Source of the DNA: Candidatus Liptonbacteria bacterium
GTDB lineage: Bacteria; Patescibacteriota; Minisyncoccia; UBA6257; 2-01-FULL-56-20
Direction of reading: 5' to 3'
DNA length: 64,000 nt
NCBI GenBank assembly: GCA_016204355.1
Contig: JACQKT010000018.1
Location: 4,987-68,986, forward strand
Under the pieces are notes generated by a model, which saw nothing but the letters and a program-made list of their open reading frames with translations, ran no database searches and was not told where the DNA came from. A program made the position numbers and the translations under genes. The first letter of the stretch is position 1. Each line of letters opens with the position of its first letter. Positions 4,521 through 64,000 of this stretch are shown in pieces.

Positions 4521-5090
4521 TCAGGCAGCCTTGCTAGTTGTCCGGCTGGCGGCGCGGGCGGCTTTGCGTGCCGTTCTGCTCAACCTTCCGGAAAACCTGA
4601 CGCAGCGGTGAAAATGTTCCGCCACGCGCTTGATCTCAACTGCGCTTCCTTTTCGTTTTCCGTCACCAACTTTCTCGAGGATTTCTTTTTCGATTCGCTC
4701 GGTGTAAACGAGCGACGCTTGGAGGATTTCCATAAAGTGATCCAGCAAGCACATGGTTCCGCCGTGCATCAGCGTCAAAACAACATTCTGCCACGGTTCG
4801 CTGTTGAAAACCTGACCCGCGTTTATCCAATCTTCGCGAGTGGGGCGTGGTACGCCGCGCTCGCCGTTCAAGATAAACGACTTTTGCGCTTCAAGCAAGC
4901 TCAGCGCCCGCCAAAGATTGTCTTTCGACGTTGATACCATTTGCAGTACTGCTTCAGAATTCAGTTTCGTCCCCTTGAGGATTGTGTCCTCCAGGTCGAC
5001 GCTGGCTCTCCCCAGCATTTCATAGGCCAGTTTTGCCGGCCCGAATGCGACAGCCAGTCCTGCAAAGAAATCGTGGTGGTCCATCTTCAT
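4521..5090 (-). CDS. hypothetical protein (189 aa), compositionally distinct (GC-rich)
   Basis: Complete ORF in a locally GC-rich segment (about 4440-5100) with its own terminator and an Arg/Ala-rich C-terminus. No confident family. Confidence 0.55.
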   Translation of the reverse strand: MKMDHHDFFAGLAVAFGPAKLAYEMLGRASVDLEDTILKGTKLNSEAVLQMVSTSKDNLWRALSLLEAQKSFILNGERGVPRPTREDWINAGQVFNSEPWQNVVLTLMHGGTMCLLDHFMEILQASLVYTERIEKEILEKVGDGKRKGSAVEIKRVAEHFHRCVRFSGRLSRTARKAARAASRTTSKAA

Positions 5091-7184: not shown

Positions 7185-8987
7185 TCATTTTTTCAAAAGG
7201 TCGCGGAAAACTTTTGTCGGTACCACCACTCGCGACATTTCTTTAAGCTTCTTTTTGCCTTCTTTTTGCTTTTTCCAAAGCTTCATCTTCCTTGTTCTGT
7301 CGCCGCCGGTTTTGCCGAAGTTTCCCAAAAGCTTCTTCATCGCCGAGATGGTTTCCCTCGCAATTATACGGCCGCGCACTTTTGCCTGTACCGCCTGCAC
7401 GAATTGTTGTTTCGGTAAAAGTTCTTTCAGGCGTTCGACCGTAGTTCTCGCCTCGGATTCCGCTTCGTCCTTGAAAATTATCCTGGTTAGCGCGGATATC
7501 GGGTCTCCATTTACGAGTATTTCCAGTTTTTCCACCTCGGCAGGCGCTTCTCCCGCAACTTCGTAACTGAAAGATGCAAAACCCGAAGAAGCCGATTTTA
7601 TCTTGTCGTCGAATCCCCGCATAAGTTCTGCAAGGGGCATTCTCGCCGAGATAACGACGTAATTCCCGATGTTTTTTATTTCTATTATTTCGATGTGGAA
7701 CTTTTCGTTGAGCCCCAGAATTTGGTTTACAAATTCTGCCGGAGAAAATATTTCCACATCGATCATCGGCTGCAAAACTTTTTCCGGATTATCGGGAAAA
7801 TCGTTCGGGTCTTTTACAACTCTCGTTTCGCCGCCGCCTCTTACTGTATAGGCAGTCGACGGGAAACTTGCCAAAAACTCCAGCCCGAATTCCCTTTCGA
7901 GACGGCTTGTCGCAATTTCAAAATGCAGCTGGCCGAGAAACCCTACCTTCAACCCCCGCCCTAGAGCTTCGCTTGAATCCGGTTCGAATATCAAAGCCGA
8001 ATCGGTAAGATGCAGTCTCTCGAACGCCCTTTTCAGGTCTTCGAATTTGGTCTGCCCGTCCGGATATAAAGACACGAAAACAACTGGTGTCGGTTCCCTG
8101 TATCCTGGAAGCGACGCCCTTTCGGATTTGCGCGAAAACGGACCTGATTCAAAAATTGTATCCCCTATTTTAACAAGAGAAGGGTCTTTCATGCCCGTGG
8201 CCATGTATCCTATTTCGCCGGCAGAAATCTCTTTTCCGGGTTTAAGCTGAGGAGTGAAATATCCCAATTCTTTTATTTTGCACTTCGACTTCGCCGCAGC
8301 GAGTTCTATTTCGTCGCCTTCTTCGAATTTTCCGTCGAAAATTCTGACGAAAGCTATTATTCCCTTGTGATCGTCGTAAAGCGAGTCGAAAATAAGCGAA
8401 CGCGACGGCGACTCGGCAAAAACGTTTTTTGAGGAAGGCGCCGGGACTTTTTTCACGACCGCTTCGAGGAGCATCGGTACGCCTTCGCCGGTTTTTCCCG
8501 AGATGCGGAAGATTTCATTTTCGGCGACGCCTATCAGTTCCGCTAGAAGCTTTGCGGATTCGTCGGCTCGCGGCGGGTTCAAATCGATTTTGTTTATGGC
8601 TCCGATTATTTTCAAGCCGGCTTTTCTTGCCGCGCGAAAATTGGAAAGGGTCTGGGCTTGTATTCCTTTCGTCGCGTCGACCAAAAGTATCGCGCCCTCC
8701 ACTGCGGCAAGCGCGCGCGAAACCTCGTAAGAAAAATCCGAATGACCCGGCGTGTCTATCAGATTCAAAATGTAACTTTCCCCGTTGAGCGAGTAACTCA
8801 TGCGAACCGGCGCCATTTTTATGGTTATGCCGCGTTCTCTTTCAAGCTCAAGCTGGTCGAGATATTGGGGCTTCATACGTCGGGCTTCAACCGTTCCCGT
8901 CAATTCCAAAAGCCTGTCGGCCAGAGTCGATTTCCCGTGATCGATATGTGCGATTATTACGAAATTCCTTATATCTTCCTGATTCAT
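7185..8987 (-). CDS. lepA: elongation factor 4 (LepA)
   Basis: IRNFVIIAHIDHGKSTLADRL G1 motif and the LepA-specific basic C-terminal tail. Confidence 0.9.
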   Translation of the reverse strand: MNQEDIRNFVIIAHIDHGKSTLADRLLELTGTVEARRMKPQYLDQLELERERGITIKMAPVRMSYSLNGESYILNLIDTPGHSDFSYEVSRALAAVEGAILLVDATKGIQAQTLSNFRAARKAGLKIIGAINKIDLNPPRADESAKLLAELIGVAENEIFRISGKTGEGVPMLLEAVVKKVPAPSSKNVFAESPSRSLIFDSLYDDHKGIIAFVRIFDGKFEEGDEIELAAAKSKCKIKELGYFTPQLKPGKEISAGEIGYMATGMKDPSLVKIGDTIFESGPFSRKSERASLPGYREPTPVVFVSLYPDGQTKFEDLKRAFERLHLTDSALIFEPDSSEALGRGLKVGFLGQLHFEIATSRLEREFGLEFLASFPSTAYTVRGGGETRVVKDPNDFPDNPEKVLQPMIDVEIFSPAEFVNQILGLNEKFHIEIIEIKNIGNYVVISARMPLAELMRGFDDKIKSASSGFASFSYEVAGEAPAEVEKLEILVNGDPISALTRIIFKDEAESEARTTVERLKELLPKQQFVQAVQAKVRGRIIARETISAMKKLLGNFGKTGGDRTRKMKLWKKQKEGKKKLKEMSRVVVPTKVFRDLLKK

Positions 8988-8988
8988 T

Positions 8989-11055
8989 TCAAATTTTTTC
9001 CATGGTTAGTCCGAATGTCATTGTACCCTCGGGGTTATCCGTTTCATATTCGAAAACCGGAGAATTATTCTCTTTCCAGATAAAGCCGACCGGCGCATAT
9101 ATTTCAAGTTTGTAAGTTCCTTCGCTTCCCGATTGTTTTTGGAAAATAAACTCGTATTTTTGGCCGCTCTTCGCCGGAGAAAATAAGTTGACCGAATAAT
9201 TCAGAATTATTCTGCTTGTTTTTCCGGGATCGGTCTTTGTCCAGAATCCGAATACTTTTTTCCCGCTTTCCCTGAATTCATCAACTCCCGGATACAAGAA
9301 ATTTTTCTTCGAGGTGGATTCTATTTCAAAAACCAACGGGTCGGATTTATAACCGTTTTTTGAATAATCGGTTTTAGGAACTATTTTCCTGTCCCATCCT
9401 CCGCCGAAACTTGAAAGAGATGTTGTTCCCGGAACAAAAATTTTCGAATAGGTTTCGTTGGTAAGTCTGTACCACCACGGATCGTTTTTCCCCCCATTGT
9501 GACGTCTTTCTACCTCAAGTTGATTCACGGCTGTCCCGTCCGAATTAAGCTGTGTTTTGAAAAAGACTTTTTGGCCCATCAGAAAATCGCTTTTCCCGCC
9601 GCCAACGTTGGCGTTGACAACAGCGAGATAGTCGCCGTTGAAATCCGCTGGCAAATCCAAAACCTTTCCGGAAATTCCGTAGAAATCGGCGAAATTTTCA
9701 AAGGCCGGGTCTTTGAAATACATCACGATATCTTTATTTCTTATCCATTCATAGAATTTTTCCGTTGCTGCCGAACTGTCTTTCGGCTGCAACGAAACGA
9801 GCCTGGACAAAAACTGCGGAACAAGTTCTATAATGATTTTTTTGGATTTTGTTCCGCCTGCTTGCGCGTTTTGGACTTCCTTTTGTATTTCCTTCAGGAA
9901 ATTGTTTTTGTCGATGATTAAATCCCTGTTTTCCAGTTTAATGGGTCCGGTCAATTCCAATACGTCGCCCAATACTTTCGGTGAAATCGCTATCGCTCCG
10001 TCAAAAGACACCTTTCCGGCGTACATTTTCGATTTTTCCATCAGTTCAATGGCCTTCGACATGGAAAGGCCTGCGTCGAAAAACCAGTTTGAATCGGCTA
10101 TGGTCCAGGCTTTTTCTATCGCCTGCAGGGGCTTGGGAGGAATTATGTTCTCTTCGAGCAATTTGTCCGGGTCATTTATGTCGTGAACCTCGACTGATTT
10201 CACGTTTCCACCCGAAAAAATCACGTCGGCGTAACTTCCTATAAATCCGCCGCTCGGCCTTATCTCCGAAGAATTTTCAAAAAGCACGAGAATATGCTTG
10301 TCCTCTTCCGAAGACAAAAAATTTATGAGGGCGAAAAGAAAATCGTTCATACGCCTGAAATTCAACTGGACCGACAAAGGAGATCCGTATCCGCCCGACA
10401 AAAAGTTGTCTATTCCCAAATCGAGAGAATTGAGTTTGTTGTTGGATTCGTTGATCAGTTCGATGTATTTCTTCGTATTTTCAAGTTTGGATATCAGTTC
10501 TTGCCCGTCTCCGCTTAAAAGAAGCTTCGGCCAGTTTTCGGTGAAATCCTCCAATTCGCGGATCAACCCCATGCCCGCGAGCGAAAAATTCTGGAAGCTC
10601 GAGTAAATCGAGCCGGCATTCTCCCATAATGATTTTGTCTTCACCAAATCCAAAACGCTTAACCGCGAATCTCCCAGATAGCTGTCCGCATTGTCTCCGT
10701 TGGTTTTCAAAAGCAGATGACCTACGTCGCCGCTCGCAAGATTGAAGTAACCTATCAAGTTGTTCCACTTGGCATAAACTCCGGCCCCCCACAAAAGAGC
10801 GACAATAACGAAAACGCCCAAAGAAATGAAAACAAGCTTCTTAATAAATTTTTTTTTGCCGCGCGAAGGTGCGGGAACGGAAAAGCCGTTTTTCGATTCC
10901 GCCTTTTCCGTTCCGAAAAATTGAGGGAATACTCTCTCGTTGAAGTTACCGTCCGAAAAAAGCCGCTTTTTCTGGTAGGCATCATTAATGCCCGGATTTT
11001 TCTGTATGTCAGCGAGGTCGCTGGAAACATTTTTTCTGGGAACTTTCCGCTTCAT
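8989..11055 (-). CDS. large membrane-anchored protein, DUF4012-like
   Basis: N-terminal TM plus a large extracytoplasmic domain. The IRPSGGFIGSYADV motif resembles the DUF4012 core. 688 aa. Confidence 0.55.
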   Translation of the reverse strand: MKRKVPRKNVSSDLADIQKNPGINDAYQKKRLFSDGNFNERVFPQFFGTEKAESKNGFSVPAPSRGKKKFIKKLVFISLGVFVIVALLWGAGVYAKWNNLIGYFNLASGDVGHLLLKTNGDNADSYLGDSRLSVLDLVKTKSLWENAGSIYSSFQNFSLAGMGLIRELEDFTENWPKLLLSGDGQELISKLENTKKYIELINESNNKLNSLDLGIDNFLSGGYGSPLSVQLNFRRMNDFLFALINFLSSEEDKHILVLFENSSEIRPSGGFIGSYADVIFSGGNVKSVEVHDINDPDKLLEENIIPPKPLQAIEKAWTIADSNWFFDAGLSMSKAIELMEKSKMYAGKVSFDGAIAISPKVLGDVLELTGPIKLENRDLIIDKNNFLKEIQKEVQNAQAGGTKSKKIIIELVPQFLSRLVSLQPKDSSAATEKFYEWIRNKDIVMYFKDPAFENFADFYGISGKVLDLPADFNGDYLAVVNANVGGGKSDFLMGQKVFFKTQLNSDGTAVNQLEVERRHNGGKNDPWWYRLTNETYSKIFVPGTTSLSSFGGGWDRKIVPKTDYSKNGYKSDPLVFEIESTSKKNFLYPGVDEFRESGKKVFGFWTKTDPGKTSRIILNYSVNLFSPAKSGQKYEFIFQKQSGSEGTYKLEIYAPVGFIWKENNSPVFEYETDNPEGTMTFGLTMEKI

Positions 11056-11556: not shown

Positions 11557-12912
11557 ATGAAAATCGCCATTTTGGGCTTCGCAAGAGAAGGACGCTCGGT
11601 CCTTAAATTCCTTCAAAAGGACCGAGAATTCAAAAAATCTGAGATTTGGATTTTGGACAAAAATCCCAATTCGGTATCGGGTATTAACCGGGTGCCCGGG
11701 ATACGAACCGGCAAGAATTATCTAAAAAATCTGCATGTCTTCGATGTTGTTTTTCGCTCGCCCGGAATACCTTATTTGTCGCCGGAAATACAAAAGGCGG
11801 AAAGAAAAGGCACAGAAATATTGAGCGCAACCAAGATATTTTTCGAAAGATGCCCCGGAACTATTATCGGCATCACAGGGACGAAAGGTAAAGGAACCAC
11901 GTCTACGATTCTCTACAAGATGCTTAAAGCCCATTCGACAAGCTCAGGGCAAGCCGGAGGCAGGAAGGTTTTTCTGGCGGGAAATATAGGCAGGCCGGCG
12001 CTGGATATGCTTTCGAAAATCGACAAAAAATCTCTTGTTGTTTTCGAACTCTCGAGCTTCCAGCTTCAAGACATGAAAATGTCCCCGGAGATAGCCGTTG
12101 TTCTGGATATTTTCCCCGACCATCTGGACGCACACAAAAATGTCAGAGAATATTACGCGGCTAAAGCTAATATCACGAAATATCAGAGCAAAAAGGACAG
12201 GGTTTTTTCCTTCAAAAACAACAGCTTGAGCGGGAAAATGGCTGCAAACGGTAAAGGCCTCAAGATTGTCGTGGACGAAAAGAAATTCGGACTTTTTTCT
12301 TCCGGCGACCTGAAAATCGATGGGCCGCATAATTTCAAAAACGCCGTTATGGCTGCGACTGTCGCGAAATCGCTGGGCGTGTCGAATAAAGCCATTGTTA
12401 AAACGATAAGGAATTTCCGCGGGATGGAGCACAGATTGGAATTTGTAAGGAAAATTAAATTGCAAATTCATTCGCATACAATTTCGCGTAATTTGCATTA
12501 TGTTTACTTTTACAACGATTCCGCTTCGACAAATCCGCAGACCGCCGCGGCGGCCATGGAATCTTTTCCGAAAAAAGAAAAAATACTTGTAGCGGGAGGA
12601 CAGGATAAAAATCTGAGTTATGCTCCTCTTAAAAAAGCGATTGAGAAATCCGGAACGAAATTTTTGGTTCTCTTCGGAGAAAACAAAAGCAAAATCGGAA
12701 AATCGGTAAGAGGGTCCGGAGCCGAGATAGCGTTTACGAAAAATCTCGCCGAGGCGATTAAAGAATCGCGTAAACGCGCGGAACACCTGGCGGCCCGAAA
12801 AGATTCTGATGTAGCCGTTCTTTTTTCTCCCGCTTCGACAAGTTTCGATATGTTCGAAAATTACGAGGATCGCGGCGATAAGTTCAAAAAAATCGTAAAA
12901 CAGTTAAAATAA
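11557..12912 (+). CDS. murD: UDP-N-acetylmuramoylalanine--D-glutamate ligase
   Basis: Mur ligase P-loop GITGTKGKGTTS, HRLEFV...NDSASTN block typical of MurD and a MurD N-terminal Rossmann start. Carries a 15-aa in-frame insert (see findings). Confidence 0.8.
   Translation: MKIAILGFAREGRSVLKFLQKDREFKKSEIWILDKNPNSVSGINRVPGIRTGKNYLKNLHVFDVVFRSPGIPYLSPEIQKAERKGTEILSATKIFFERCPGTIIGITGTKGKGTTSTILYKMLKAHSTSSGQAGGRKVFLAGNIGRPALDMLSKIDKKSLVVFELSSFQLQDMKMSPEIAVVLDIFPDHLDAHKNVREYYAAKANITKYQSKKDRVFSFKNNSLSGKMAANGKGLKIVVDEKKFGLFSSGDLKIDGPHNFKNAVMAATVAKSLGVSNKAIVKTIRNFRGMEHRLEFVRKIKLQIHSHTISRNLHYVYFYNDSASTNPQTAAAAMESFPKKEKILVAGGQDKNLSYAPLKKAIEKSGTKFLVLFGENKSKIGKSVRGSGAEIAFTKNLAEAIKESRKRAEHLAARKDSDVAVLFSPASTSFDMFENYEDRGDKFKKIVKQLK
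12457..12502. repeat. 45-nt palindromic GCGAAT-family element lying in-frame inside murD
   Basis: Sequence aaattgcaaattcattcgcatacaatttcgcgtaatttgcattat shares ATTCGCA / TTCGCG / ATTTGCAT words with the intergenic element family. It encodes KLQIHSHTISRNLHY, which is absent from the canonical MurD block. Confidence 0.5.
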
Positions 12913-12916
12913 ACGA

Positions 12917-13210
12917 ATGCTTTCAGAGATAGATAAAAAAACCATAGAATATCTCGCCGAACTCTCCAGGATAAAGCTCGGCGCCGACGAAGAAAATAAA
13001 ATACTTAAGGACTTGAAAAAAATCCTCGTTTATTTCGAGGAGCTGAAATCACTCGATACTTCCGGCATAGAAACCATGAATGGAGGTACCGAGGCTAAAA
13101 ACGAATTCAGGAACGACGATGACAGGACGGATACCGACAAAGGAAATGGCGTTGAGGCGTTCCCCGAAAAAGAAAACGGCTTTTTAAAAGTGCCTCCGGT
13201 GTTCGAATGA
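12917..13210 (+). CDS. gatC: Asp/Glu-tRNA amidotransferase subunit C
   Basis: 97-aa protein with GatC pattern (EYLAELSRIKLGADEE...ILVYFEELKSLDTSGIE), directly upstream of gatA. Confidence 0.8.
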   Translation: MLSEIDKKTIEYLAELSRIKLGADEENKILKDLKKILVYFEELKSLDTSGIETMNGGTEAKNEFRNDDDRTDTDKGNGVEAFPEKENGFLKVPPVFE

Positions 13211-13269
13211 ACATAATGCGAACGATGCGAATTTGTATGCGAATACCACGAATGTATTAGGAAAATCGA
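13211..13269. repeat. half (non-palindromic) GCGAAT-motif element in the gatC-gatA spacer
   Basis: Direct iterations AATGCGAAC, GATGCGAAT, TATGCGAATA, CACGAATG, ATCGAATG fill the gap from the gatC stop to the gatA ATG. Confidence 0.5.
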
Positions 13270-14751
13270 ATGACTCCACTAAAGAATCTCACAATAAAAA
13301 AATTCAATGAGGGCCTCGTAAAAAAGGATTTTTCCGCAGCTGAAATAGCTGACGCTTTTCTCCGGGAAATTTCACGAAAAGACGGCGAAATAGGAGCTTA
13401 TTTGAGCATCAACGAAGAAGGCGCGCTACGGGAAGCGGAAGCTGTAGATGCTTCGTTGGCAAAAGGAGAAAAAATCGGCCCTTTTGCCGGAGTTCCCATC
13501 GCAATAAAGGACAACATTCTTATAAAGGGCCTGCGGGCAACGGCCGCTTCAAAAATTCTCGAAAACTACACGGCAAGTTATGACGCGGGCATAATAAAAA
13601 AGTTAAAAAACGAACGCGCAGTTTTTCTCGGCAAAACGAACATGGACGAATTTGCAATGGGTTCTTCGACGGAAAATTCGGCCTTTAAAATGACAAAAAA
13701 TCCGCATGATAACGAGCGGGTTCCCGGGGGCTCTTCCGGCGGGTCCGCTGCCGCAGTGGCGGCCGATCTTGCCGTAGCGGCATTAGGCTCTGATACCGGC
13801 GGCTCCATTCGCGAACCGGCTGCGTTTTGCGGCGTGGTCGGATTGAAACCTACGTACGGCGCGGTCTCCCGCTCCGGCTTAATCGCTATGGCTTCGAGCC
13901 TGGATCAAATCGGGCCGATAACGAAAACGGTTCAGGATTCGGCTCTTCTTTTCAACGCAATACGCGGACAGGACGCGCTCGATGCCACCAGTACGGAAAT
14001 TCCCGGAAGTGAAAATTATATCAGGGAACTCTTGGATCCAGATCTGAAAAAAATAAAAGATTTGGTAATCGGCATTCCGGGAGAGTACTTCCCCGAAGAA
14101 TTGGATGAAACAACAAAGAAAAGCATAGATGTCACAATAAAAACTGTCCAAAGTCTCGGAGTTAAATTCAAAAAAATCTCATTACCCAACACCAGATACG
14201 CACTATCGTGCTATTACATAATCATGCCGGCGGAGGTAAGTTCCAATTTGGCGCGTTTCGATGGAATAAGGTACGGCAGAAAGACGGAAGGCGTACAGCC
14301 GGCAACAAACCTGAAAGATATTTATTTCAAGACAAGAGGCGAAGGGTTCGGAAATGAAGCGAAAAGAAGAATTATTTTAGGAACTTTTGTCTTGTCGTCG
14401 GGTTACTACGATTCTTACTATAAAAAAGCGCAGCAGGTAAGGAGACTTATAAAAAATGATTTTGAAAACGCGCTCAAAGAAGTAGACGCTATAATGACGC
14501 CGGTGACTCCCGGCCCAGCTTTCAAAATCGGAGAAAAAACAGAAGACCCTTTAACAATGTATCTATCTGACATTTTCACTATACCGGCAAACTTAGCCGG
14601 ACTGCCGGCCGTTTCCATACCTGTCCGCGAAAAAAAGGAGGGCCTGCCGATAGGATTCCAGCTTATCGGCAAAGCATGGCGCGAACCCGATATACTCGGA
14701 CTCGGTTTTTATTACGAAAAAACAACCGCTCCCGAACTTTACGAGAATTAA
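13270..14751 (+). CDS. gatA: glutamyl-tRNA(Gln) amidotransferase subunit A
   Basis: Amidase signature GGSSGGSAAAVAA with GVPIAIKDN. Confidence 0.9.
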   Translation: MTPLKNLTIKKFNEGLVKKDFSAAEIADAFLREISRKDGEIGAYLSINEEGALREAEAVDASLAKGEKIGPFAGVPIAIKDNILIKGLRATAASKILENYTASYDAGIIKKLKNERAVFLGKTNMDEFAMGSSTENSAFKMTKNPHDNERVPGGSSGGSAAAVAADLAVAALGSDTGGSIREPAAFCGVVGLKPTYGAVSRSGLIAMASSLDQIGPITKTVQDSALLFNAIRGQDALDATSTEIPGSENYIRELLDPDLKKIKDLVIGIPGEYFPEELDETTKKSIDVTIKTVQSLGVKFKKISLPNTRYALSCYYIIMPAEVSSNLARFDGIRYGRKTEGVQPATNLKDIYFKTRGEGFGNEAKRRIILGTFVLSSGYYDSYYKKAQQVRRLIKNDFENALKEVDAIMTPVTPGPAFKIGEKTEDPLTMYLSDIFTIPANLAGLPAVSIPVREKKEGLPIGFQLIGKAWREPDILGLGFYYEKTTAPELYEN

Positions 14752-22316: not shown

Positions 22317-23543
22317 TTAGTGAATTGTCCCGACAAGCTGGTAAAGCGGCAGAAGAACCGAAGCAAAAAGTATCCCTATCACGATTCCTATCCCTATAAT
22401 CAAGACCGGCTGTATCAACTCGACTATGTTACCTATGGCCGCATCTGCTTCCCGGCCGTAGAATGCCGATATGCGCGAAAAAGTTGACTCCAGCTGCCCC
22501 GCTTCTTCTCCCACGGCGATCATTTGCGTAACAAGCGACGGAAAATATTGTGGATATTTTGAAGCGGATGCCGAAATCGTTTGCCCCTGGCGCACGTCTT
22601 CGGCAATTTGATGCATTATTTCGCGATAAACGACATTGTCGGCCGTTTCGCCGATTATCTCCATAGATTGGACGACTGGCACGCCTCCTTTCAAAAGCAT
22701 GGATGCCGAATTCGATATACGGGTGATCGTCAACGGGAGATAAATTTTATTCAATATCGGGAGAGAAATCTTGAATTCGTCCTTAACGGCTTTTCCTTCC
22801 GGGGTCCGAAAATAATCGACGATCATCAGGGCGATTCCGAAAAGCGCAAAAAGGATAACTGGCCACCACTGATTGAGAAACGCGCTTACCGCCACTATTA
22901 TCAATGTGAACAGAGGAAGTTCAACGCCCGCTTCCGAGAATATCGGCCCGACTTGTGGAACGACGAATGTCGCCAATATGAACGAAACGACGAAAAATAG
23001 AATTATCAAAATGGCCGGATAAATAAGCGCGGACTGCGCTTTCTGCTCGAGAGAATATTCGCGTTCAAGATAGTCGGCCAAAAATCCCATGACATTTTCA
23101 AGATTGCCCGTTAATTCGGCTGACCTGACCATGCTCGTAAAAAATCCAGAAAAGATTTCCGGCTGCCTTTCCAGCGCCTGCGAAAACGACAAGCCGGCAT
23201 CGATGTTTTCGGAAATTTGGAGCACTGCCTCTTTTAGCATCGGGCTGGTCGTCTGTTTATGCAAAGTTTTCAGGCTTATATTAAGAGGAACGCGCGCTTC
23301 AAGAAGTATGGCGAGTTGGCGAGTGAATATGACAAAATCCTTTTTGTGCAGGCGATTAGAAAAATAATCGCTCAATTTTTCATACCATCTGGATTTCTCC
23401 GCTTCCTCCAGGCTGAGAATGAAAAGGTTGTGTTCCGCCAAAATGCTAGTCGCCGCTTCTTTGCTTGCGGCTTCAACCACTCCGATTTGGTTTTCTCCTT
23501 CTTTAGTTTTAGCCTGATATTTGAATTTCATATGCTTACGCAC
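22317..23543 (-). CDS. pilC: type IV pilus platform protein (GspF/PilC family)
   Basis: Two T2SS-F repeats with three TM segments, 408 aa. GTG start. Confidence 0.85.
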   Translation of the reverse strand: MRKHMKFKYQAKTKEGENQIGVVEAASKEAATSILAEHNLFILSLEEAEKSRWYEKLSDYFSNRLHKKDFVIFTRQLAILLEARVPLNISLKTLHKQTTSPMLKEAVLQISENIDAGLSFSQALERQPEIFSGFFTSMVRSAELTGNLENVMGFLADYLEREYSLEQKAQSALIYPAILIILFFVVSFILATFVVPQVGPIFSEAGVELPLFTLIIVAVSAFLNQWWPVILFALFGIALMIVDYFRTPEGKAVKDEFKISLPILNKIYLPLTITRISNSASMLLKGGVPVVQSMEIIGETADNVVYREIMHQIAEDVRQGQTISASASKYPQYFPSLVTQMIAVGEEAGQLESTFSRISAFYGREADAAIGNIVELIQPVLIIGIGIVIGILFASVLLPLYQLVGTIH

Positions 23544-23646
23544 ATAATGCGAATGACACTAATTTTGTGCGAATGTTGCAAATACCGCGAATGCATTTCT
23601 TGGTTTTTTGCATTATTCGCATACATTCGTAGGTTGGCATTATGTC
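23537..23646. repeat. palindromic GCGAAT-family element spanning the pilT-stop to pilC-start gap
   Basis: AATGCGAATG, GTGCGAATG, CCGCGAATG direct iterations followed by inverted CATTATTCGCAT, CATTCGTAG, GCATTATG. Ends resemble CATAATGC inverted. Confidence 0.55.
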
Positions 23647-45273: not shown

Positions 45274-45282
45274 AAGTTTACG

Positions 45283-45384
45283 AAGTACGAATAATTACGA
45301 AAATACGAATTTTGCGGCGCTAATAACTTTGTTGAAGTTATTCGTATTTTCGTACTTGATTAGCAATTTCGTAAATGTACGGTA
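45283..45384. repeat. palindromic TACGAAT-family element upstream of clpB
   Basis: TACGAAAATACGAAT (45296-45310) is the reverse complement of ATTCGTATTTTCGTA (45340-45354). Inner hairpin AATAACTT-tgttg-AAGTTATT. Shares ATTCGTATTTTCGTAC and TTCGTAAATG with the 47612 element. Confidence 0.55.
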
Positions 45385-47605: not shown

Positions 47606-47681
47606 GGAAATTTTACGAAATTACTAATTTTTACGAATATACGAATTCGTATTTTCGTACTCATTCGTAACTTCGTAAATG
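47606..47681. repeat. palindromic TACGAAT-family element
   Basis: TTACGAATATACGAATTCGTATTTTCGTAC near-perfect palindrome centred on CGAATTCG, followed by TTCGTAACTTCGTAAATG. Confidence 0.55.
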
Positions 47682-48179
47682 CTAAACGTGCCTGTCGGCT
47701 ACGTTGGAAGCGGCATAACTGACCGGTTTTGTTACCGGTTCGAAATCGTGAGCGCGTATCATGCCGACGACTTCCTGTATCATCGCTTTCGTCGGTCCGT
47801 TTTCGCCGACATCAGCGTGTATCTCGAAATCCCATTCGGGCATTTCACGCCCTTCGGCGTCGGAAAGCCTTTTCAATTCGGTAAGAATTTCCTTTCCGAG
47901 GTCTATTGATATCAGAACTTCGCGTATTATCCTGTCGCGGAGCGTATGGAATTTTCCGAGCTGAGCGCGGCGCCAAAAATATCTTCCTCCGTTTCCTACC
48001 CGATGAACCACCGCGGCAGTGACGAAATCGGCCCTGCCGTCGGCAAGCCTTTCGGAATCCGTTCCTATCATTATTTTGTATTTGCGTTTCGGCTGTTCCT
48101 TCATAAAGCGGATTATCTCCTCCGCGACCCTATGAACGGTTAGCTTGATTCCGAAAGAACTGTTGAAAAATTCGGGCAT
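47682..48179 (-). CDS. DUF458/YkuK-like protein (predicted RNase H-like fold)
   Basis: 165 aa with the KIMIGTDSE motif typical of YkuK-family proteins. Confidence 0.45.
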   Translation of the reverse strand: MPEFFNSSFGIKLTVHRVAEEIIRFMKEQPKRKYKIMIGTDSERLADGRADFVTAAVVHRVGNGGRYFWRRAQLGKFHTLRDRIIREVLISIDLGKEILTELKRLSDAEGREMPEWDFEIHADVGENGPTKAMIQEVVGMIRAHDFEPVTKPVSYAASNVADRHV

Positions 48180-54222: not shown

Positions 54223-55284
54223 ATGTCGCCAAAAAAACAAAAAGAAGAAAGCAAAGTGGTTCGACCCATTCAACAAGCTCAGGGCAAGCAAAACTCACCG
54301 CAGGAAACCAAAAATCAGCTCGATGAGCTGATGACTTCCCTTCAGGAGAAGTTCGGCGAAGGCGCGATAATGAAGCTCGGCGAAGTAAGGCATGTCGACG
54401 TGTCCGTGATTCCGACCGGTTCTTTTTCACTTGACCTCGCGCTTGGAGTCGGCGGATTGCCGCGGGGACGCGTAATCGAAATTTTCGGGCCCGAAGGCAG
54501 CGGGAAAACGACGCTCGCCCTTAACGTCGTCGCCCAGGCGCAAAAACAGGGCGGCAAAGCGGCATACATAGACGCCGAACACGCCCTCGACCCGGAATAC
54601 GCTGCGCGCCTCGGAGTGAAAATAAACGACCTTTTGATATCCCAGCCGGACAATGGAGAAGAAGCGTTGAATATTCTCGAGAGTTTGGTGCGCTCGGAAG
54701 CGATTTCCGTGGTAGTCGTCGATTCGGTGGCGGCACTTACGCCGAAAGCCGAAATCGAGGGAGAAATGGGAGACCAGCACATCGGCAGGCAGGCGAGAAT
54801 GATGTCGCAGGCGCTCCGCAAGCTCACGGCGCTCTCGGCGAGGTCTCAAACGATGATAATTTTTATAAACCAGATAAGGATGAAAATCGGCATTATGTTC
54901 GGAAATCCGGAAACGACTCCCGGCGGGCTTGCTCTTAAGTTCGCTTCTTCCGTTCGGCTTGATGTCCGGAGAATCGCGCAGGTTAAAAAAGGAGAAGACG
55001 TCGTCGGCAGCCGTGTCAAAGTTAAAGTTGTAAAAAACAAAGTCGCTCCGCCGTTCAGACTCGCGGAATTCGACATTATGTACGGCAAAGGAATTTCATA
55101 CGAAGCCGATGTTTTGAACGCCGGGCTCAAATACGGAGCACTCACTAAATCCGGCGCTTCCTATTCGTTCGAAGGAGAAAAAATCGCAGTCGGAATGGAA
55201 AAAGCCTGCGAAAAACTCGCCGAAGACAAAAAACTTTTGAACGCGATTAAAGCCAAGGTTAAAACGCTGGCAGCGGAGAAGTAG
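54223..55284 (+). CDS. recA: recombinase RecA
   Basis: [17 protein letters not shown] Walker [16 protein letters not shown]1/L2 loop regions. 353 aa. Confidence 0.95.
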
Positions 55285-58488: not shown

Positions 58489-58562
58489 TTGATATGATTT
58501 ACGATTTATGATTCGAGATTTATGTTTTAAAAATTTTTGCGGAACGATTCATAAATCTTAAA

Positions 58563-59576: not shown

Positions 59577-60137
59577 ATGGTAATAAACTATTTCGGAGAC
59601 GGATGCTTCCGGCTGCAAAGCGGCGATATTTCCCTCCTGGTGGACCCTAATAACAATCGCCTCAAGGCAGACATTGTTCTAAAAACGATAATGGCCCCGA
59701 ATGCGGAGATGGCCGAAACGAACGAAATCTCGTTTCCCGGAGAATACGAATTCAAGGATATACATATACAAGGATGGCCGGTCGACAAGGAATCGACGGA
59801 AAAGTTTTTGAAAACGGTCTATCTGGTCAAATGGGAGAATCTCGGTTTTGTTTTTCTTGGACATCTTTCAAACGGCCTTGAGCCGGAAATTGCCGAAGAA
59901 TTCAGCGAACAGGATGTCATTTTTGTCCCTGTCGGAGACCATTTTCTCTCCGAAGAAAACGCCGCGAAGCTCGCGAAAAAGCTTGAGCCCGCCGTCATCA
60001 TACCGGGATTCCTGAAAAAACACGACTCGTTCGCAAAGGCGCTCGGGCAAAAACCGGAAATACAGGAAAAGTTCGTTTTCAAGAAAAAAGACCTGGAAAA
60101 CCTGAAGAATAAACCTATCATTTTGAAAAGTGCGTGA
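59577..60137 (+). CDS. MBL-fold metal-dependent hydrolase-like protein
   Basis: 186 aa with a beta-lactamase-like beta-sandwich pattern (LVDPNNNR...). Weak. Confidence 0.45.
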   Translation: MVINYFGDGCFRLQSGDISLLVDPNNNRLKADIVLKTIMAPNAEMAETNEISFPGEYEFKDIHIQGWPVDKESTEKFLKTVYLVKWENLGFVFLGHLSNGLEPEIAEEFSEQDVIFVPVGDHFLSEENAAKLAKKLEPAVIIPGFLKKHDSFAKALGQKPEIQEKFVFKKKDLENLKNKPIILKSA

Positions 60138-60239
60138 CATAATGCAAATCTACGAATGTATGCTAATGATGCAAATATTACGAATACAATGGAAATAAAA
60201 ATTTGCGGTATTCGCATAAATTAGCGTATTAGCATTACC
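60138..60239. repeat. palindromic GCGAAT/TACGAAT-family element (contains direct-repeat copy A)
   Basis: AATGCAAAT, TACGAATG, ATGCTAATG, ATGCAAAT, TACGAATA followed by inverted TATTCGCAT, TATTAGCAT. The 46-bp segment 60170-60215 is repeated exactly at 60559-60604. Confidence 0.55.
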
Positions 60240-60551
60240 TTGTGGGCATTAGCGAACATGTACGATTTCATAAAAAAATTGCGCGAGGGCGACGACGCCA
60301 CTAAAAGGAAATGGCTCGTTCTTTTTTCGAGCATAGCCATGATACTGGTCGTCTTTGTCTGGATAAAATATTTCAATACCCTGGTGACGTCGGTTGGCGT
60401 TCCTCAGCAGCAGGAAAATGTTTCCGAAAAATTTACTTTTTTGCAAACGCTTGAATCCGGATTGGCTACGATCGGCAACGGAATCGCAGGACTTGCCGGT
60501 TCTCTATTCGAGACGATAAGCCAGCCGAAAAGTTATCTGATACAGCCATGA
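60240..60551 (+). CDS. small single-TM membrane protein (probable start at ATG 60258)
   Basis: MYDFIKKL..., one TM helix (WLVLFSSIAMILVVFVWI). Flanked by the 46-bp direct repeats. Confidence 0.4.
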   Translation: MWALANMYDFIKKLREGDDATKRKWLVLFSSIAMILVVFVWIKYFNTLVTSVGVPQQQENVSEKFTFLQTLESGLATIGNGIAGLAGSLFETISQPKSYLIQP

Positions 60552-60671
60552 AATATAATGCAAATATTACGAATACAATGGAAATAAAAATTTGCGGTAT
60601 TCGCGGCATTCCTGCCTACCGGCAGGCAGGCGTATAAAAATTCGCGTCGTTAGCATTATGTTTTACACACC
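60552..60671. repeat. GCGAAT/TACGAAT-family element (direct-repeat copy B) with hairpin, upstream of gyrA
   Basis: Exact 46-bp copy of 60170-60215, then CCTGCC-tacc-GGCAGG hairpin and TTCGCG / TAGCATTATG words ending 10 nt before the gyrA ATG. Confidence 0.55.
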
Positions 60672-63113
60672 ATGAGCAACATAGAAAAAAGGGAAATAAC
60701 AAAAGAGCTTCAGGAATCGTATCTCAATTACGCGATGTCCGTCATAGTCAGCCGCGCCCTTCCCGACGTACGCGACGGAATGAAACCGGTTCAGCGGCGC
60801 ATTTTGTGGGCAATGTGGGATAGCGGACTGACCCATCTCGCCAAGACCAGGAAATCGGCGAACGTGGTTGGCGAAACAATGGCTCGCTATCACCCTCACG
60901 GCGATACTTCAATCTATGACGCGCTGGCGCGAATGGTGCAGGACTGGTCACTGCGCTATCCGCTTGTCACAGGTCAGGGAAACTTCGGTTCGATAGATGG
61001 CGACTCGCCTGCGGCCATGCGTTACACGGAAGCCAAGCTTTCCAAAATAAGTGAGGAACTGCTCGTCGACATAGAAAAGGAAACTGTCGACTGGCAGGAT
61101 AACTACGACGGTACGCGCCAGGAGCCGAAAGTCCTTCCCGCGAAACTCCCGAACCTTCTTCTTAACGGAACGGTTGGGATTGCCGTGGGAATGGCGACGA
61201 ACATTCCTCCGCACAATCTCAACGAAGTCGCCGACGCCATTCTTCATTTTGCGGAAAATCCCGATGCCGACACCGACGACCTCCTTAAATTCGTAAAAGG
61301 CCCCGATTTCCCAACAGGAGGCGTTATCTTCGACAAAAAAGCCATTCGCGAAGCCTATTCTTCCGGAAAAGGCCCCATTCTGGCGCGCGCGAAAGCCGAC
61401 ATACAGGAAAGAAAAAGCAGGCAATTCGATATCATAATCACCGAAATTCCGTACCAGGTGAACAAATCGGAACTGATAAAACACATGGCGGAGCTGGTGC
61501 AGAACAAAAAGATAGAAGGGATAAGGGACATCCGCGACGAATCGGACCGTGAAGGATTGCGCATCGTCGTCGAGCTTAAATCGGACGCGAACCCGCAGAA
61601 AATTCTGAACCAGCTTTATCAATACACCGACCTTCAGAAATATTTTCATATGAATATGATTGCACTCGTCGACGGAATACAGCCTCAGCTTTTGACGCTG
61701 AAGGATGTGATTGCCGAACATCTCGAATACAGAAAAAAAATCGTACGGTGCCGGACCGAATTCGACCTCAAAAAAGCCAAGGAGCGTGCGCATATTCTTG
61801 AAGGACTGCACAAGGCTCTCGGAGTGATAGACAAAATAATCGCGGCGATAAAAAAATCTAAAGACAGGAATGACGCGCATCAGAATCTCGTAAAGCAATT
61901 CAAATTGAGCGACATCCAGGCGAACGCGATACTCGAAATGCGTCTCCAAACCCTGGCCGCGCTCGAAAGAAAAAAAATAGAAGACGAATTGAAAGAGAAG
62001 CTCGCGCTGATAAAAGATCTGGAGACGATACTCAAAAGCCCGGCGAAAATACTGGGCATAATAAAAACGGAAGTAAAAGAGTTGAAGGGAAAATACGGCG
62101 ACGACAGAAAAACTTCCGTTGTAGACGGCGGCGTGAAAACTTTCAGCGAAGAAGACCTGGTTCCAGAAGAAGAAGCGGTTATAACACTGTCGTCGGGAGG
62201 ATACATAAAACGCCTTCCCCCCGATTCGTTCAAGGCGCAGAAGCGCGGCGGGAAAGGGTTGATAGGGTCGGAAGTGAGCGAAGAAGATTTCATAACGCAA
62301 TTTTTCGCAGCAGGAACCCACGACAACATACTTTTCTTCACCGACCGCGGCAGGGTTTTCCAGACGAAGGTTTACGAAATTCCGGCAGCGAGCAGGGTTT
62401 CCAAGGGCAGGGCGATACATAACTTTCTCGAACTGCCGTCGGATGAAAACGTCAGCGCAGTTGTGAACTACAGCGAAAAGAAAGAGCCCTCCGAAGGCAA
62501 GTATCTGATAATGGTCACCAAAAGCGGCGTCATCAAAAAAACGCCGCTTGAGGATTTCAAAAATATACGCCGGACCGGCATCATCGCGATTAAACTCTCC
62601 GCCCAGGGCGGAAAAAAAGGAGACAGCCTCAAATGGGCGCGTCTATCAAGCGGCTCCGACCAGATAATCCTGGGAACCAAAAACGGCCAGGCGATAAGAT
62701 TCAAGGAAACGCAGGCTAGGCCGATGTCGAGAACGGCGAGCGGAATCAGGGCGATAAAACTGAAGAAGAACGACGAAGTCGCCGGGTTTGATATAATAAA
62801 AAGCGAAACGAAAGAAGCGAAAGTTCTCGCGGTGATGGCGAACGGCTTCGGGAAACAAACCCCTCTGAAGGAGTATAAAATCCAGAACAGGGGCGGCTCC
62901 GGGATAAAGATAGCGAATATCACCCCGAAAACCGGCTCGTTGATCGCGACCCAGCTTATCACCGAACAAACCGAAATTCTCGCACTTTCGGAAAAAGGAC
63001 AGGTTATAAGAACGGGTTTGTCTGGAGTAAGGACCACGGGGCGTTCCGCGCAGGGAGTCCGTATAATGAATCTCAAGCAGGGAGACAAGCTTGCCGGAAT
63101 AGTTTTAATATAA
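60672..63113 (+). CDS. gyrA: DNA gyrase subunit A
   Basis: YAMSVIVSRALPDVRDGMKPVQRRIL and HPHGDTSIYDALARM (GyrA signature including the quinolone-resistance-determining region (QRDR)), six C-terminal beta-pinwheel blades. 813 aa. Confidence 0.95.
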   Translation: MSNIEKREITKELQESYLNYAMSVIVSRALPDVRDGMKPVQRRILWAMWDSGLTHLAKTRKSANVVGETMARYHPHGDTSIYDALARMVQDWSLRYPLVTGQGNFGSIDGDSPAAMRYTEAKLSKISEELLVDIEKETVDWQDNYDGTRQEPKVLPAKLPNLLLNGTVGIAVGMATNIPPHNLNEVADAILHFAENPDADTDDLLKFVKGPDFPTGGVIFDKKAIREAYSSGKGPILARAKADIQERKSRQFDIIITEIPYQVNKSELIKHMAELVQNKKIEGIRDIRDESDREGLRIVVELKSDANPQKILNQLYQYTDLQKYFHMNMIALVDGIQPQLLTLKDVIAEHLEYRKKIVRCRTEFDLKKAKERAHILEGLHKALGVIDKIIAAIKKSKDRNDAHQNLVKQFKLSDIQANAILEMRLQTLAALERKKIEDELKEKLALIKDLETILKSPAKILGIIKTEVKELKGKYGDDRKTSVVDGGVKTFSEEDLVPEEEAVITLSSGGYIKRLPPDSFKAQKRGGKGLIGSEVSEEDFITQFFAAGTHDNILFFTDRGRVFQTKVYEIPAASRVSKGRAIHNFLELPSDENVSAVVNYSEKKEPSEGKYLIMVTKSGVIKKTPLEDFKNIRRTGIIAIKLSAQGGKKGDSLKWARLSSGSDQIILGTKNGQAIRFKETQARPMSRTASGIRAIKLKKNDEVAGFDIIKSETKEAKVLAVMANGFGKQTPLKEYKIQNRGGSGIKIANITPKTGSLIATQLITEQTEILALSEKGQVIRTGLSGVRTTGRSAQGVRIMNLKQGDKLAGIVLI

Positions 63114-63210
63114 TGCGAATGATGCCAATTTTATCGCGAATGACACGAAAATATTTTAGACTGTTTTTCGCATAATTCGCGTCTTATTTCGCATCATTCG
63201 CATTATATTA
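63106..63210. repeat. about 105-bp palindromic GCGAAT-family element exactly filling the gyrA-stop to next-ATG gap
   Basis: TAATATAATGCGAATGATGC (63106-63125, containing the gyrA TAA) and its perfect reverse complement GCATCATTCGCATTATATTA (63191-63210, abutting the ATG at 63211). Interior has CGCGAAT / ATTCGCG. Confidence 0.6.
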
Positions 63211-64000
63211 ATGAACCTATCTTCAAAGCAGACAGTTATCATAGGAACGACAATAGCCGTTCTTTTGCTTATCGCAGTATTGGTTCTCTTCAATCTTCGC
63301 CCCAGCGAAACTGCGGGAGTGCAGCTCGTGATGTGGGGCTTTGAAAAAGAAACTGTCATAAAGCCCATCATAAGCGCGTACAGACAATCGCATCCGAACG
63401 TAAACGTAACTTATAAGGAGGTAAGTAAAAATAATTATGAAACTACGCTCCTGAACGCGCTTGCGTCGGGACAGGGGCCGGATATTTTTCCGGTTCATAA
63501 CAGAAGTCTGATAAAAAACGCCAACGTTCTTTATCCTGCGCCGCCTTCGCAGTTCAACACGAGCCAGCTTGAAAATCTTTTCCCCGCCGAAGTCGCGCAG
63601 GATTTCGTTTTGACATCCGGCGGCAATACCCAAACCCGTCAGGTGTACGCGTTGCCTACTTATTTCGATACTCTTTCTTTGATTTACAACAAAGAATTGT
63701 TTGACCAGGCGGGAATCGCGAATCCCCCGTCGACATGGGAACAGTTTCAGTCCGATATTCCCAAATTGCGGATAATTTCCGTAAGTGGACAAATAACGAG
63801 AGCGGGCGCCGCTCTGGGAGGTTCGCAAAAAACGGTGACAAACGCGGTTGATATTTTGAACGCGATAATGCTTCAAAACGGGGTCGCAATGACGACCGGA
63901 AATTACGCGTCGTTCGCTTCCGAAAAGGGAATCGGCGCTTTTAACTTTTACCTTCGTTTCGCGGATTCCGGTTCCACCTATTACACATGGAACGAAACCC
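63211..64000 (+). CDS. extracellular solute-binding protein (ABC transporter substrate-binding, family 1-like), 3' partial
   Basis: ATG at 63211 with an open frame to the window end (hand-translated, no stops). N-terminal signal-anchor, then an SBP-like sequence (…GQGPDIFPVHN…YALPTYFDTLSLIYNKELF…). Not in the ORF track because it has no stop. Confidence 0.55.
   Translation, partial: MNLSSKQTVIIGTTIAVLLLIAVLVLFNLRPSETAGVQLVMWGFEKETVIKPIISAYRQSHPNVNVTYKEVSKNNYETTLLNALASGQGPDIFPVHNRSLIKNANVLYPAPPSQFNTSQLENLFPAEVAQDFVLTSGGNTQTRQVYALPTYFDTLSLIYNKELFDQAGIANPPSTWEQFQSDIPKLRIISVSGQITRAGAALGGSQKTVTNAVDILNAIMLQNGVAMTTGNYASFASEKGIGAFNFYLRFADSGSTYYTWNET

Follow-up and report, generated by a model that had tools for sequence, protein, structure and literature searches.

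The murD gene of Candidatus Liptonbacteria, as found in the 64-kb stretch of DNA analyzed here (the window, from which all our sequence of the host genome comes), contains an in-frame 45-nt segment that, on nucleotide comparison, is a copy of a palindromic element of the intergenic gaps in the same window. Our explanation, which we consider probable, is that a solo or internally deleted arm of this palindromic repeat was fixed in frame at the tip of a hairpin in MurD, where it is translated and carried as a tolerated passenger. The gene and the parts of the segment are as follows:

11557-12912, plus strand: murD (UDP-N-acetylmuramoyl-L-alanine--D-glutamate ligase), an intact open reading frame (ORF) of 451 amino acids
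12457-12501, plus strand: element-derived in-frame segment of 15 codons, peptide KLQIHSHTISRNLHY (translation, empty-site comparison and structure alignment)
12468-12503, plus strand: core of the murD copy, with right-arm sub-repeats ATTCGCAT / TTTCGCGT / ATTTGCATTATGT (nhmmer match and repeat comparison)
12457-12469, plus strand: possible left-terminus remnant AAATTGCAAAT, similar to ATAATGCAAAT, the outer end in the 60136 and 60555 elements (direct reading and inference)

The product of murD has the three-domain architecture of a Mur ligase (Pfam MurD-like_N, Mur_ligase_M and Mur_ligase_C) together with the P-loop GxxGKT/S, NDSxxTN and SPxxxSFDxF signatures that define MurD membership, and GITGTKGKGTT, NDSASTN and SPASTSFDMF can be read in its translation. 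Its best match among solved structures is the MurD structure 3lk7 (E=1.4e-56). A protein from a Candidatus Liptonbacteria metagenome-assembled genome (MAG) matches it at 100% identity, and the next-nearest MurD is only 62% identical. The segment begins at an offset of 900 nt from the start codon (12457-11557 = 900), keeps the murD frame and translates to KLQIHSHTISRNLHY, flanked by HRLEFVRKI before it and VYFYNDSASTN after it. This agrees with an earlier sequence-only reading of this DNA, which had described a 45-nt stretch in the murD frame, except that the end coordinate it gave, 12502, was wrong, since the 45 nt end at 12501. The string occurs once in the window.

A repeat search and direct reading show that the element family of the window consists of imperfect palindromes of ∼100 nt. 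Each arm is built of about four sub-repeats with the core ATTCGCR (or TTTGCA or TTAGCA), mostly 9 nt apart, and ends in GCATTATRT. The outer ends of the elements read ACATAATGC / GCATTATGT, and the terminal inverted repeats ATAATGCRAAT...ATTYGCATTAT are present in the full copies and, imperfectly, in the murD copy. The intergenic members are:

13207-13258: solo left arm filling the gatC-gatA spacer, closest relative and inverted partner of the murD copy (profile E=1.4e-11)
23541-23646: full palindromic element filling an intercistronic gap (repeat search, profile and fold)
60136-60240: full palindromic element filling an intercistronic gap (repeat search, profile and fold)
60555-60663: full element that has a GC-rich hairpin nested in it and a right arm with 82% identity to the copy in murD (repeat search, profile and fold)
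63105-63211: full palindrome, the best preserved in the family (folded as RNA at -43.6 kcal/mol, z=-8.35)

On a rough longest-ORF map of the window, each of these copies spans a whole gap of 59 to 120 nt, from the stop codon of one gene to the start of the next, mostly between ORFs on the same strand, and the elements should therefore be transcribed inside operons. The well-preserved copies fold with z scores of -8.35, -7.3, and -4.4, and the eroded ones with z scores of -1.5 to -2.8. A role as promoter or terminator was considered and dismissed, as no sigma-70-like or intrinsic-terminator-like consensus is present at the elements; likewise, the Rfam matches in the window are tRNAs only, with none at the elements, so that a known RNA family was set aside.

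The kinship of the murD segment with these elements, also claimed by the sequence-only reading, was confirmed with an nhmmer profile trained on nine intergenic arms, with the murD stretch left out of the training. The profile matches 12468-12503 (E=1.4e-6, 24.6 bits), which is the sole significant match outside the training set in 64 kb and the only one in coding sequence. Positions 12470-12504 are identical to the reverse complement of 13210-13244 at 30 of 35 positions, in register, and the 82% identity to a right arm extends over 33 nt (60631-60663). The murD copy shows the ATTCGCR-type sub-repeats ∼9 nt apart and the GCATTATRT end by which arms of the family are recognized. It is a right arm, solo or truncated, comparable in this to the solo left arm at 13207-13258, and not a full palindrome: its fold of -8.2 kcal/mol is no better than that of shuffled sequences (z=-1.27), and a self-contained hairpin in murD was accordingly rejected. 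The partial dyad symmetry attributed to the segment by the sequence-only reading does exist, as an 8-bp stem between the 12457-12469 region and 12486-12496; by itself it has no significance at this z score. Since the first 12 nt (AAATTGCAAAT) look like a left end, the 45 nt may be an internally deleted element and not a pure half.

The spacer arm at 13207-13258 invites an explanation at the RNA level, in which the murD arm would pair with it and the resulting long double-stranded stem would control processing or stability of the murD-gatCA mRNA, for instance by offering RNase III a site. Within the window, neither arm has a closer relative than the other, and the predicted duplex between 12470-12504 and 13210-13244 reaches -46.9 kcal/mol against -14.5 ± 3.6 kcal/mol for shuffles, with 34 bp present in the minimum-free-energy structure of an 851-nt RNA at pair probabilities near 1. 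We nevertheless rate a regulatory pairing as very unlikely because three other genomes with a murD copy (L001, L003, and L004) have no partner arm downstream, for which reason conserved long-range pairing was rejected; moreover, ribosomes on murD would melt the stem. The predicted 34-bp helix, whose arms lie ∼700 nt apart, would hold the end of murD (its 3' end) and the entire gatC gene between its strands.

To place the segment in the protein, we compared it with a canonical relative, L127, which represents the empty site: FVRKI-GG-VEFW (AAA ATC|GGC GGC|GTA GAA). In the window, 15 codons stand in place of the two glycines. The 15 added amino acids of the sequence-only reading are thus correct as a count of codons and not as a net gain, which is 13 residues relative to canonical relatives and to solved MurD structures, since a two-residue turn is replaced; HMMER alignments to 3lk7 and 7sir accordingly show a 13-residue gap exactly opposite klqihshtisrnl. 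Statements on the structure of the insert rest on a predicted AlphaFold2 model (mean predicted local distance difference test [pLDDT] score 91.4, predicted template modeling score 0.89). In this model, residues 303 to 313 form a loop between the strands 295-302 and 314-320, with a local pLDDT of ∼72. The insert hence replaces the two-residue turn and lengthens the first β-hairpin of the MurD C-terminal domain, a loop location being one of the points to check in the sequence-only reading. The model, together with what is generally known of MurD structures, makes it probable that the hairpin tip is exposed to solvent and far from the D-Glu site. All the invariant Mur-ligase columns are retained.

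We aligned first 40 and then 120 MurD homologs, 117 of which could be scored at the hairpin tip. The distance from HRLE to NDS has the canonical 11 residues in 51 of the 117, is 4 residues longer in 15, and is 5 to 34 residues longer in 51. The insert is absent from the close relatives P0003-P0013 and from the 51 homologs with the canonical loop, and is therefore lineage specific. Four orthologs that we compared at the DNA level have element-type copies at this very site, oriented in the same way: L001 (P0002), L003 (P0030), L004 (P0014), and L005 (P0029). Their segments are built of ATTCGCA-type (or ATTCGGG-type) sub-repeats, and the one in L004 reads AATTCGCATCATTCGCATAAACATTCGCAACATTCGCATTAT. 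Exactly one 9-nt sub-repeat separates the insert of the window from that of L001. The spacing between sub-repeats is 9 or 12 nt in 11 of 11 cases in the four murD inserts of the ATTCGCA type, and 8 to 12 nt in the intergenic arms; the 9/12-nt spacing is what would be expected from a filter against frames with stop codons. Across the five inserts, all 17 serine codons are TCG and all 19 histidine codons are CAT, whereas these make up fractions of 0.30 and 0.57 of the respective codons in the window's own genes. It follows that the insert owes its richness in His and Ser to the DNA motif, as a side effect.

The L005 genome has a family variant to itself (ATTCGGG...TTCGGGTCGC), which was located at these positions:

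L005, 13344-13460: intergenic palindrome of the variant
L005, 10781-10830 and 10965-11030: two sites in murD, one of them the hairpin tip
L005, 16419-16470: in gatA, in the opposite orientation, read as DPKLRIHPNDPNKSE

The variant is thus present in murD, gatA, and intergenic DNA of L005, which means that the copy in murD is of the family resident in that genome. The ortholog insert was also recovered on 7 independent contigs from several samples, which argues that it is not an assembly artifact. It is true that the tip varies in length across many MurD proteins, that the genome is AT rich, and that the element is made of short motifs. An ordinary variable loop with a coincidental, compositional likeness to the repeat, or an artifact of assembly, would nonetheless have to produce the profile match and the 30/35 identity to the neighboring arm, the uniform codons of the inserts, an L005 copy of the own-genome variant, and the same insert on all of those contigs, and we regard it as scarcely credible. 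The homologous segments that were found in other MurD proteins are confined to related Patescibacteria and are built of ATTCGCA/ATTCGGG sub-repeats, which in spirit leaves standing the claim of an element insertion as against a loop shared with unrelated lineages.

In the surroundings of murD in L003, a serine recombinase gene (8052-9632) lies just upstream of murD, and a bAvd/23S-rRNA-IVP-like gene (12951-13313) lies between gatC and gatA, with the local synteny disturbed.

The history of the tip was followed on a neighbor-joining tree, of which we used the topology and the pairwise identities, the bootstrap values being unusable because of a rooting mismatch. Inserts at the tip comprise several types of repeat peptide, scattered among lineages with the canonical loop. 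P0002 belongs to a clade that excludes P0001 and in which most members are without the HSH insert. The tip may have seen one old insertion followed by several losses or else repeated insertions; for the 120 sequences as a whole, it is hard to avoid assuming several independent events. The murD insert itself occurs in the P0002 lineage as well and may for this reason be old.

It could also be that the loop, although derived from the element, is now kept for a function in MurD, such as metal binding or contact with a partner of the Mur pathway. The peptides of P0001 and P0002 at the tip (KLQIHS-HTISRNLHY and KLPIHSWHSHTVSRNSHY) are conserved despite a MurD identity of only ∼62 to 66%, and His-rich versions of the tip recur in at least five lineages. 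However, the tip in sister lineages holds unrelated peptides (MVRQAHHKNKSA, IRINQ..KSA, or VLKNLRI) or nothing at all, the model confidence falls within the loop, and the invariant TCG and CAT codons point to a constraint or origin at the level of DNA and not of protein. (That the IRINQ..KSA and VLKNLRI types come from repeats is judged from recurring peptides, at the peptide level only.) We therefore consider such an exaptation unlikely, and we infer that the peptide is a neutral passenger.

Other loops of MurD are also variable. Alignment columns 40-90, 205-240, 315-345, 408-435, 455-475, and 590-607 are among the loops with lineage-specific inserts, and at least half a dozen other MurD loops of Patescibacteria contain repeat-like peptides, such as INADGNADKRRYK..NQRKSA, SAKGGSASGGKN, PSTTLRTGE, and LSRISARINADE. 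Several MurD homologs lose their Mur_ligase_C Pfam match.

The presence of the family in other genes and genomes was assessed by a scan of GTDB genomes with the pattern TTCGCRYNRTTNGCATTAT, which is too degenerate and returned at least 119 loci, mostly chance matches. After re-scoring with the arm profile, ∼20 true element loci were recognized among the matches listed, nearly all of them in Patescibacteria; the element-bearing groups among these matches are Sungii-, Buchanan-, Falkow-, and Wildermuthbacteria, Saccharibacteria, and Paceibacterota. The element family is thus widespread in Patescibacteria. In L033, an arm is found in a loop of a 489-codon membrane protein. A complete palindrome of the family is also present in another gene:

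L124 (Patescibacteria H43-bin079, JBBTVY010000006.1), 622-708: complete palindrome in frame in a UvrD-family helicase (fold z=-7.05)

It lies between the motifs TFTNKAAKEM and GTFHSFG and adds ∼20 to 29 residues. Copies inside other ORFs, which the sequence-only reading had suggested looking for, are therefore known from four other murD genes, from a second murD site and gatA in L005, and from uvrD in L124. With the lineage specificity and the loop location, every test proposed with that reading thus came out in its favor, which supports its claim that an element was tolerated as an in-frame insertion in an essential enzyme. The same pattern search also hit viral contigs, where all that it returned were simple (ATTATTCGC)n tandem arrays on MAGs of giant viruses, and these were rejected as copies of the element. 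The giant-virus contigs L157, L174, L160, and L180 carry pure (ATTATTCGC)n arrays with a 9-nt period; they share the ATTCGCA core and are minisatellites, not palindromes.

The window's murD contains, in addition, a repeat unrelated to the element:

11932-11955, plus strand: second, unrelated repeat in frame in murD (CATTCGACAAGCTCAGGGCAAGCC, peptide AHSTSSGQA), giving 8 extra residues versus 3lk7

The sole other copy of CATTCGACAAGCTCAGGGCAAGCC in the window lies in the N-terminal tail of recA (54267-54290, with 2 mismatches) and is read in a different frame. In the homolog P0021, the hairpin insert MVRQAHRKNKSA shares the TTCGACAAGCTCA core with this repeat, and an exact 19-nt copy of it recurs within an intergenic hairpin on the same contig. 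The motif is thus read in three frames in different proteins, which is strong evidence of an origin as nucleic acid. In L185, the same core gives an MVRQAH hairpin insert in another MurD (10871-10918) and an intergenic hairpin (4961-4979).

Two sister families, palindromic or periodic and of the same build, are also present in the window:

45277-45378 and 47609-47682: sister family with the core TACGAA
24735-24781 and 58490-58536: sister family with a GATTTA-type core

They likewise fill intercistronic gaps exactly, and both arms of one element share the same core variant. Within the family of the murD copy, the 47-nt stretches 60169-60215 and 60558-60604 are 100% identical and flank a 103-codon ORF (60240-60551), as would be expected from a recent duplication at this locus or from a composite arrangement. 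A GC-rich hairpin, CCTGCCTACCGGCAGGCAGG, at 60604-60632 is nested in the element 60555-60663, as if one element had entered another. We tentatively suggest, with a little less than even confidence, that Patescibacteria carry several families of palindromes built of sub-repeats and that these recurrently colonize the same permissive loops of essential enzymes (MurD at several sites, GatA, UvrD, and RecA).

How the segment reached murD can be outlined as follows. One arm of the non-coding palindromic repeat would have gone to fixation, in frame, where the first β-hairpin of the C-terminal domain has its tip, and its translation would have turned a two-residue turn into a 15-residue His/Ser-rich loop with the Mur-ligase motifs left intact. 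Entry may have occurred through transposition of an element of the kind of a miniature inverted-repeat transposable element (MITE) or a repetitive extragenic palindrome (REP), followed by internal deletion, or through recombination or template switching. The segment could have persisted because the hairpin tip is structurally permissive, and selection would pass only copies that are free of stop codons and have sub-repeat spacings in multiples of three. Slippage between the 9-nt sub-repeats would then alter the length of the loop while preserving the frame.

Several points weigh against this account. The identical position and the conserved peptide in P0002 mean that the insert may be ancient and have been lost repeatedly, and retention over so long a time could point to an acquired function. 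By eye, we see no target-site duplication at the murD copy or at the intergenic copies, and no transposase was identified in the window, whose genes were not systematically annotated. Mobility is unproven because there is no empty-site allele from a close strain, the nearest MurD being 62% identical. Finally, the exposure of the tip and its distance from the active site are put forward as likely from the AlphaFold2 model and general knowledge of MurD.

If several such families indeed recurrently colonize the loops of essential enzymes in Patescibacteria, a large share of the lineage-specific inserts that make proteins of the candidate phyla radiation (CPR) look divergent would be translated selfish DNA. 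A process like that of the Rickettsia palindromic elements (RPEs) would then operate across the phylum, and hairpin tips, MurD 303-313 among them, would be hot spots of gain, replacement, and trimming. Selfish DNA within coding genes, a phenomenon known chiefly from Rickettsia, would be extended to the CPR, and the MurD tip offers a concrete and repeatedly used insertion hot spot in an essential enzyme of peptidoglycan synthesis. Inserts of this kind make CPR proteins seem more divergent than they are and disturb alignments and phylogenies; they can also break domain detection, as in the homologs without a Mur_ligase_C match, and could serve as strain markers. They raise the questions of how hairpin-forming repeats enter and leave the coding DNA of tiny genomes and of whether the encoded loops or the RNA pairings ever become functional.

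We found no prior description of elements of this kind in CPR/Patescibacteria in the open-access literature searched, nor any CPR description in the general open-access literature on in-frame palindromic elements, which is not proof of novelty in either case. The TIGR-Tas arrays of Parcubacteria were considered and set aside: our copies are single in intercistronic gaps, with no tandem array as described for those systems (PMC12045711), and a tas gene was not looked for. The 9-nt units permit frame-preserving slippage, as in coding minisatellites, but the spacers between sub-repeats are variable and the family is dispersed and palindromic, and the pure (ATTATTCGC)n arrays are a different thing.

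REPs are 20 to 40 nt long, have a GTAG head and cognate REP-associated tyrosine transposases (RAYTs), and are extragenic by definition. Like REPs and bacterial interspersed mosaic elements (BIMEs), the present elements are imperfect palindromes in intercistronic gaps inside operons, expected to be transcribed as hairpins. They do not belong with REPs or BIMEs, however, lacking the GTAG/CTAC head, the length of 20 to 40 nt, and the strictly extragenic location: the ends are ACATAATGC...GCATTATGT and genic copies exist, and no RAYT was seen, though RAYTs were not systematically searched for. Target duplication is expected of classical MITEs, whereas none is visible here, and periodic sub-repeats would be unusual for a MITE; no parent insertion sequence was found, and none was searched for. 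With bacterial MITEs (Correia, ERIC, Nezha, and others) the elements nevertheless share a short, non-autonomous, AT-rich build, terminal inverted repeats, and occasional in-frame fusions with host ORFs, which MITEs are known to produce (PMC10969869).

The closest known analogue is the RPE. RPEs are dispersed repeats of 100 to 150 bp that are abundant both between and within genes and are inserted in frame, and some of their inserts are lineage-wide, as is the case for an RPE-7-like insert in PheT, or extend to an entire genus (PMC1779305; PMC10969869). The family described here likewise consists of interspersed palindromes in a bacterium with a reduced genome, found between genes and in frame in the housekeeping genes murD, gatA, and uvrD, where the translated segments are compatible with the fold. 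It is nonetheless judged to be a different family, and no relation in sequence is expected. RPEs (RPE-1 to RPE-10) have hosts among the Rickettsiales, whereas the host here, Candidatus Liptonbacteria, is a Patescibacterium and belongs to a different phylum, and the elements are set apart by size and architecture as well. Each RPE encodes a conserved peptide, while our full elements are ∼100 nt long and made of 9-nt sub-repeats, single arms are frequent and the murD copy is one of them, with 45 nt, and the hairpin tip is contested by several families of repeats unrelated to one another.

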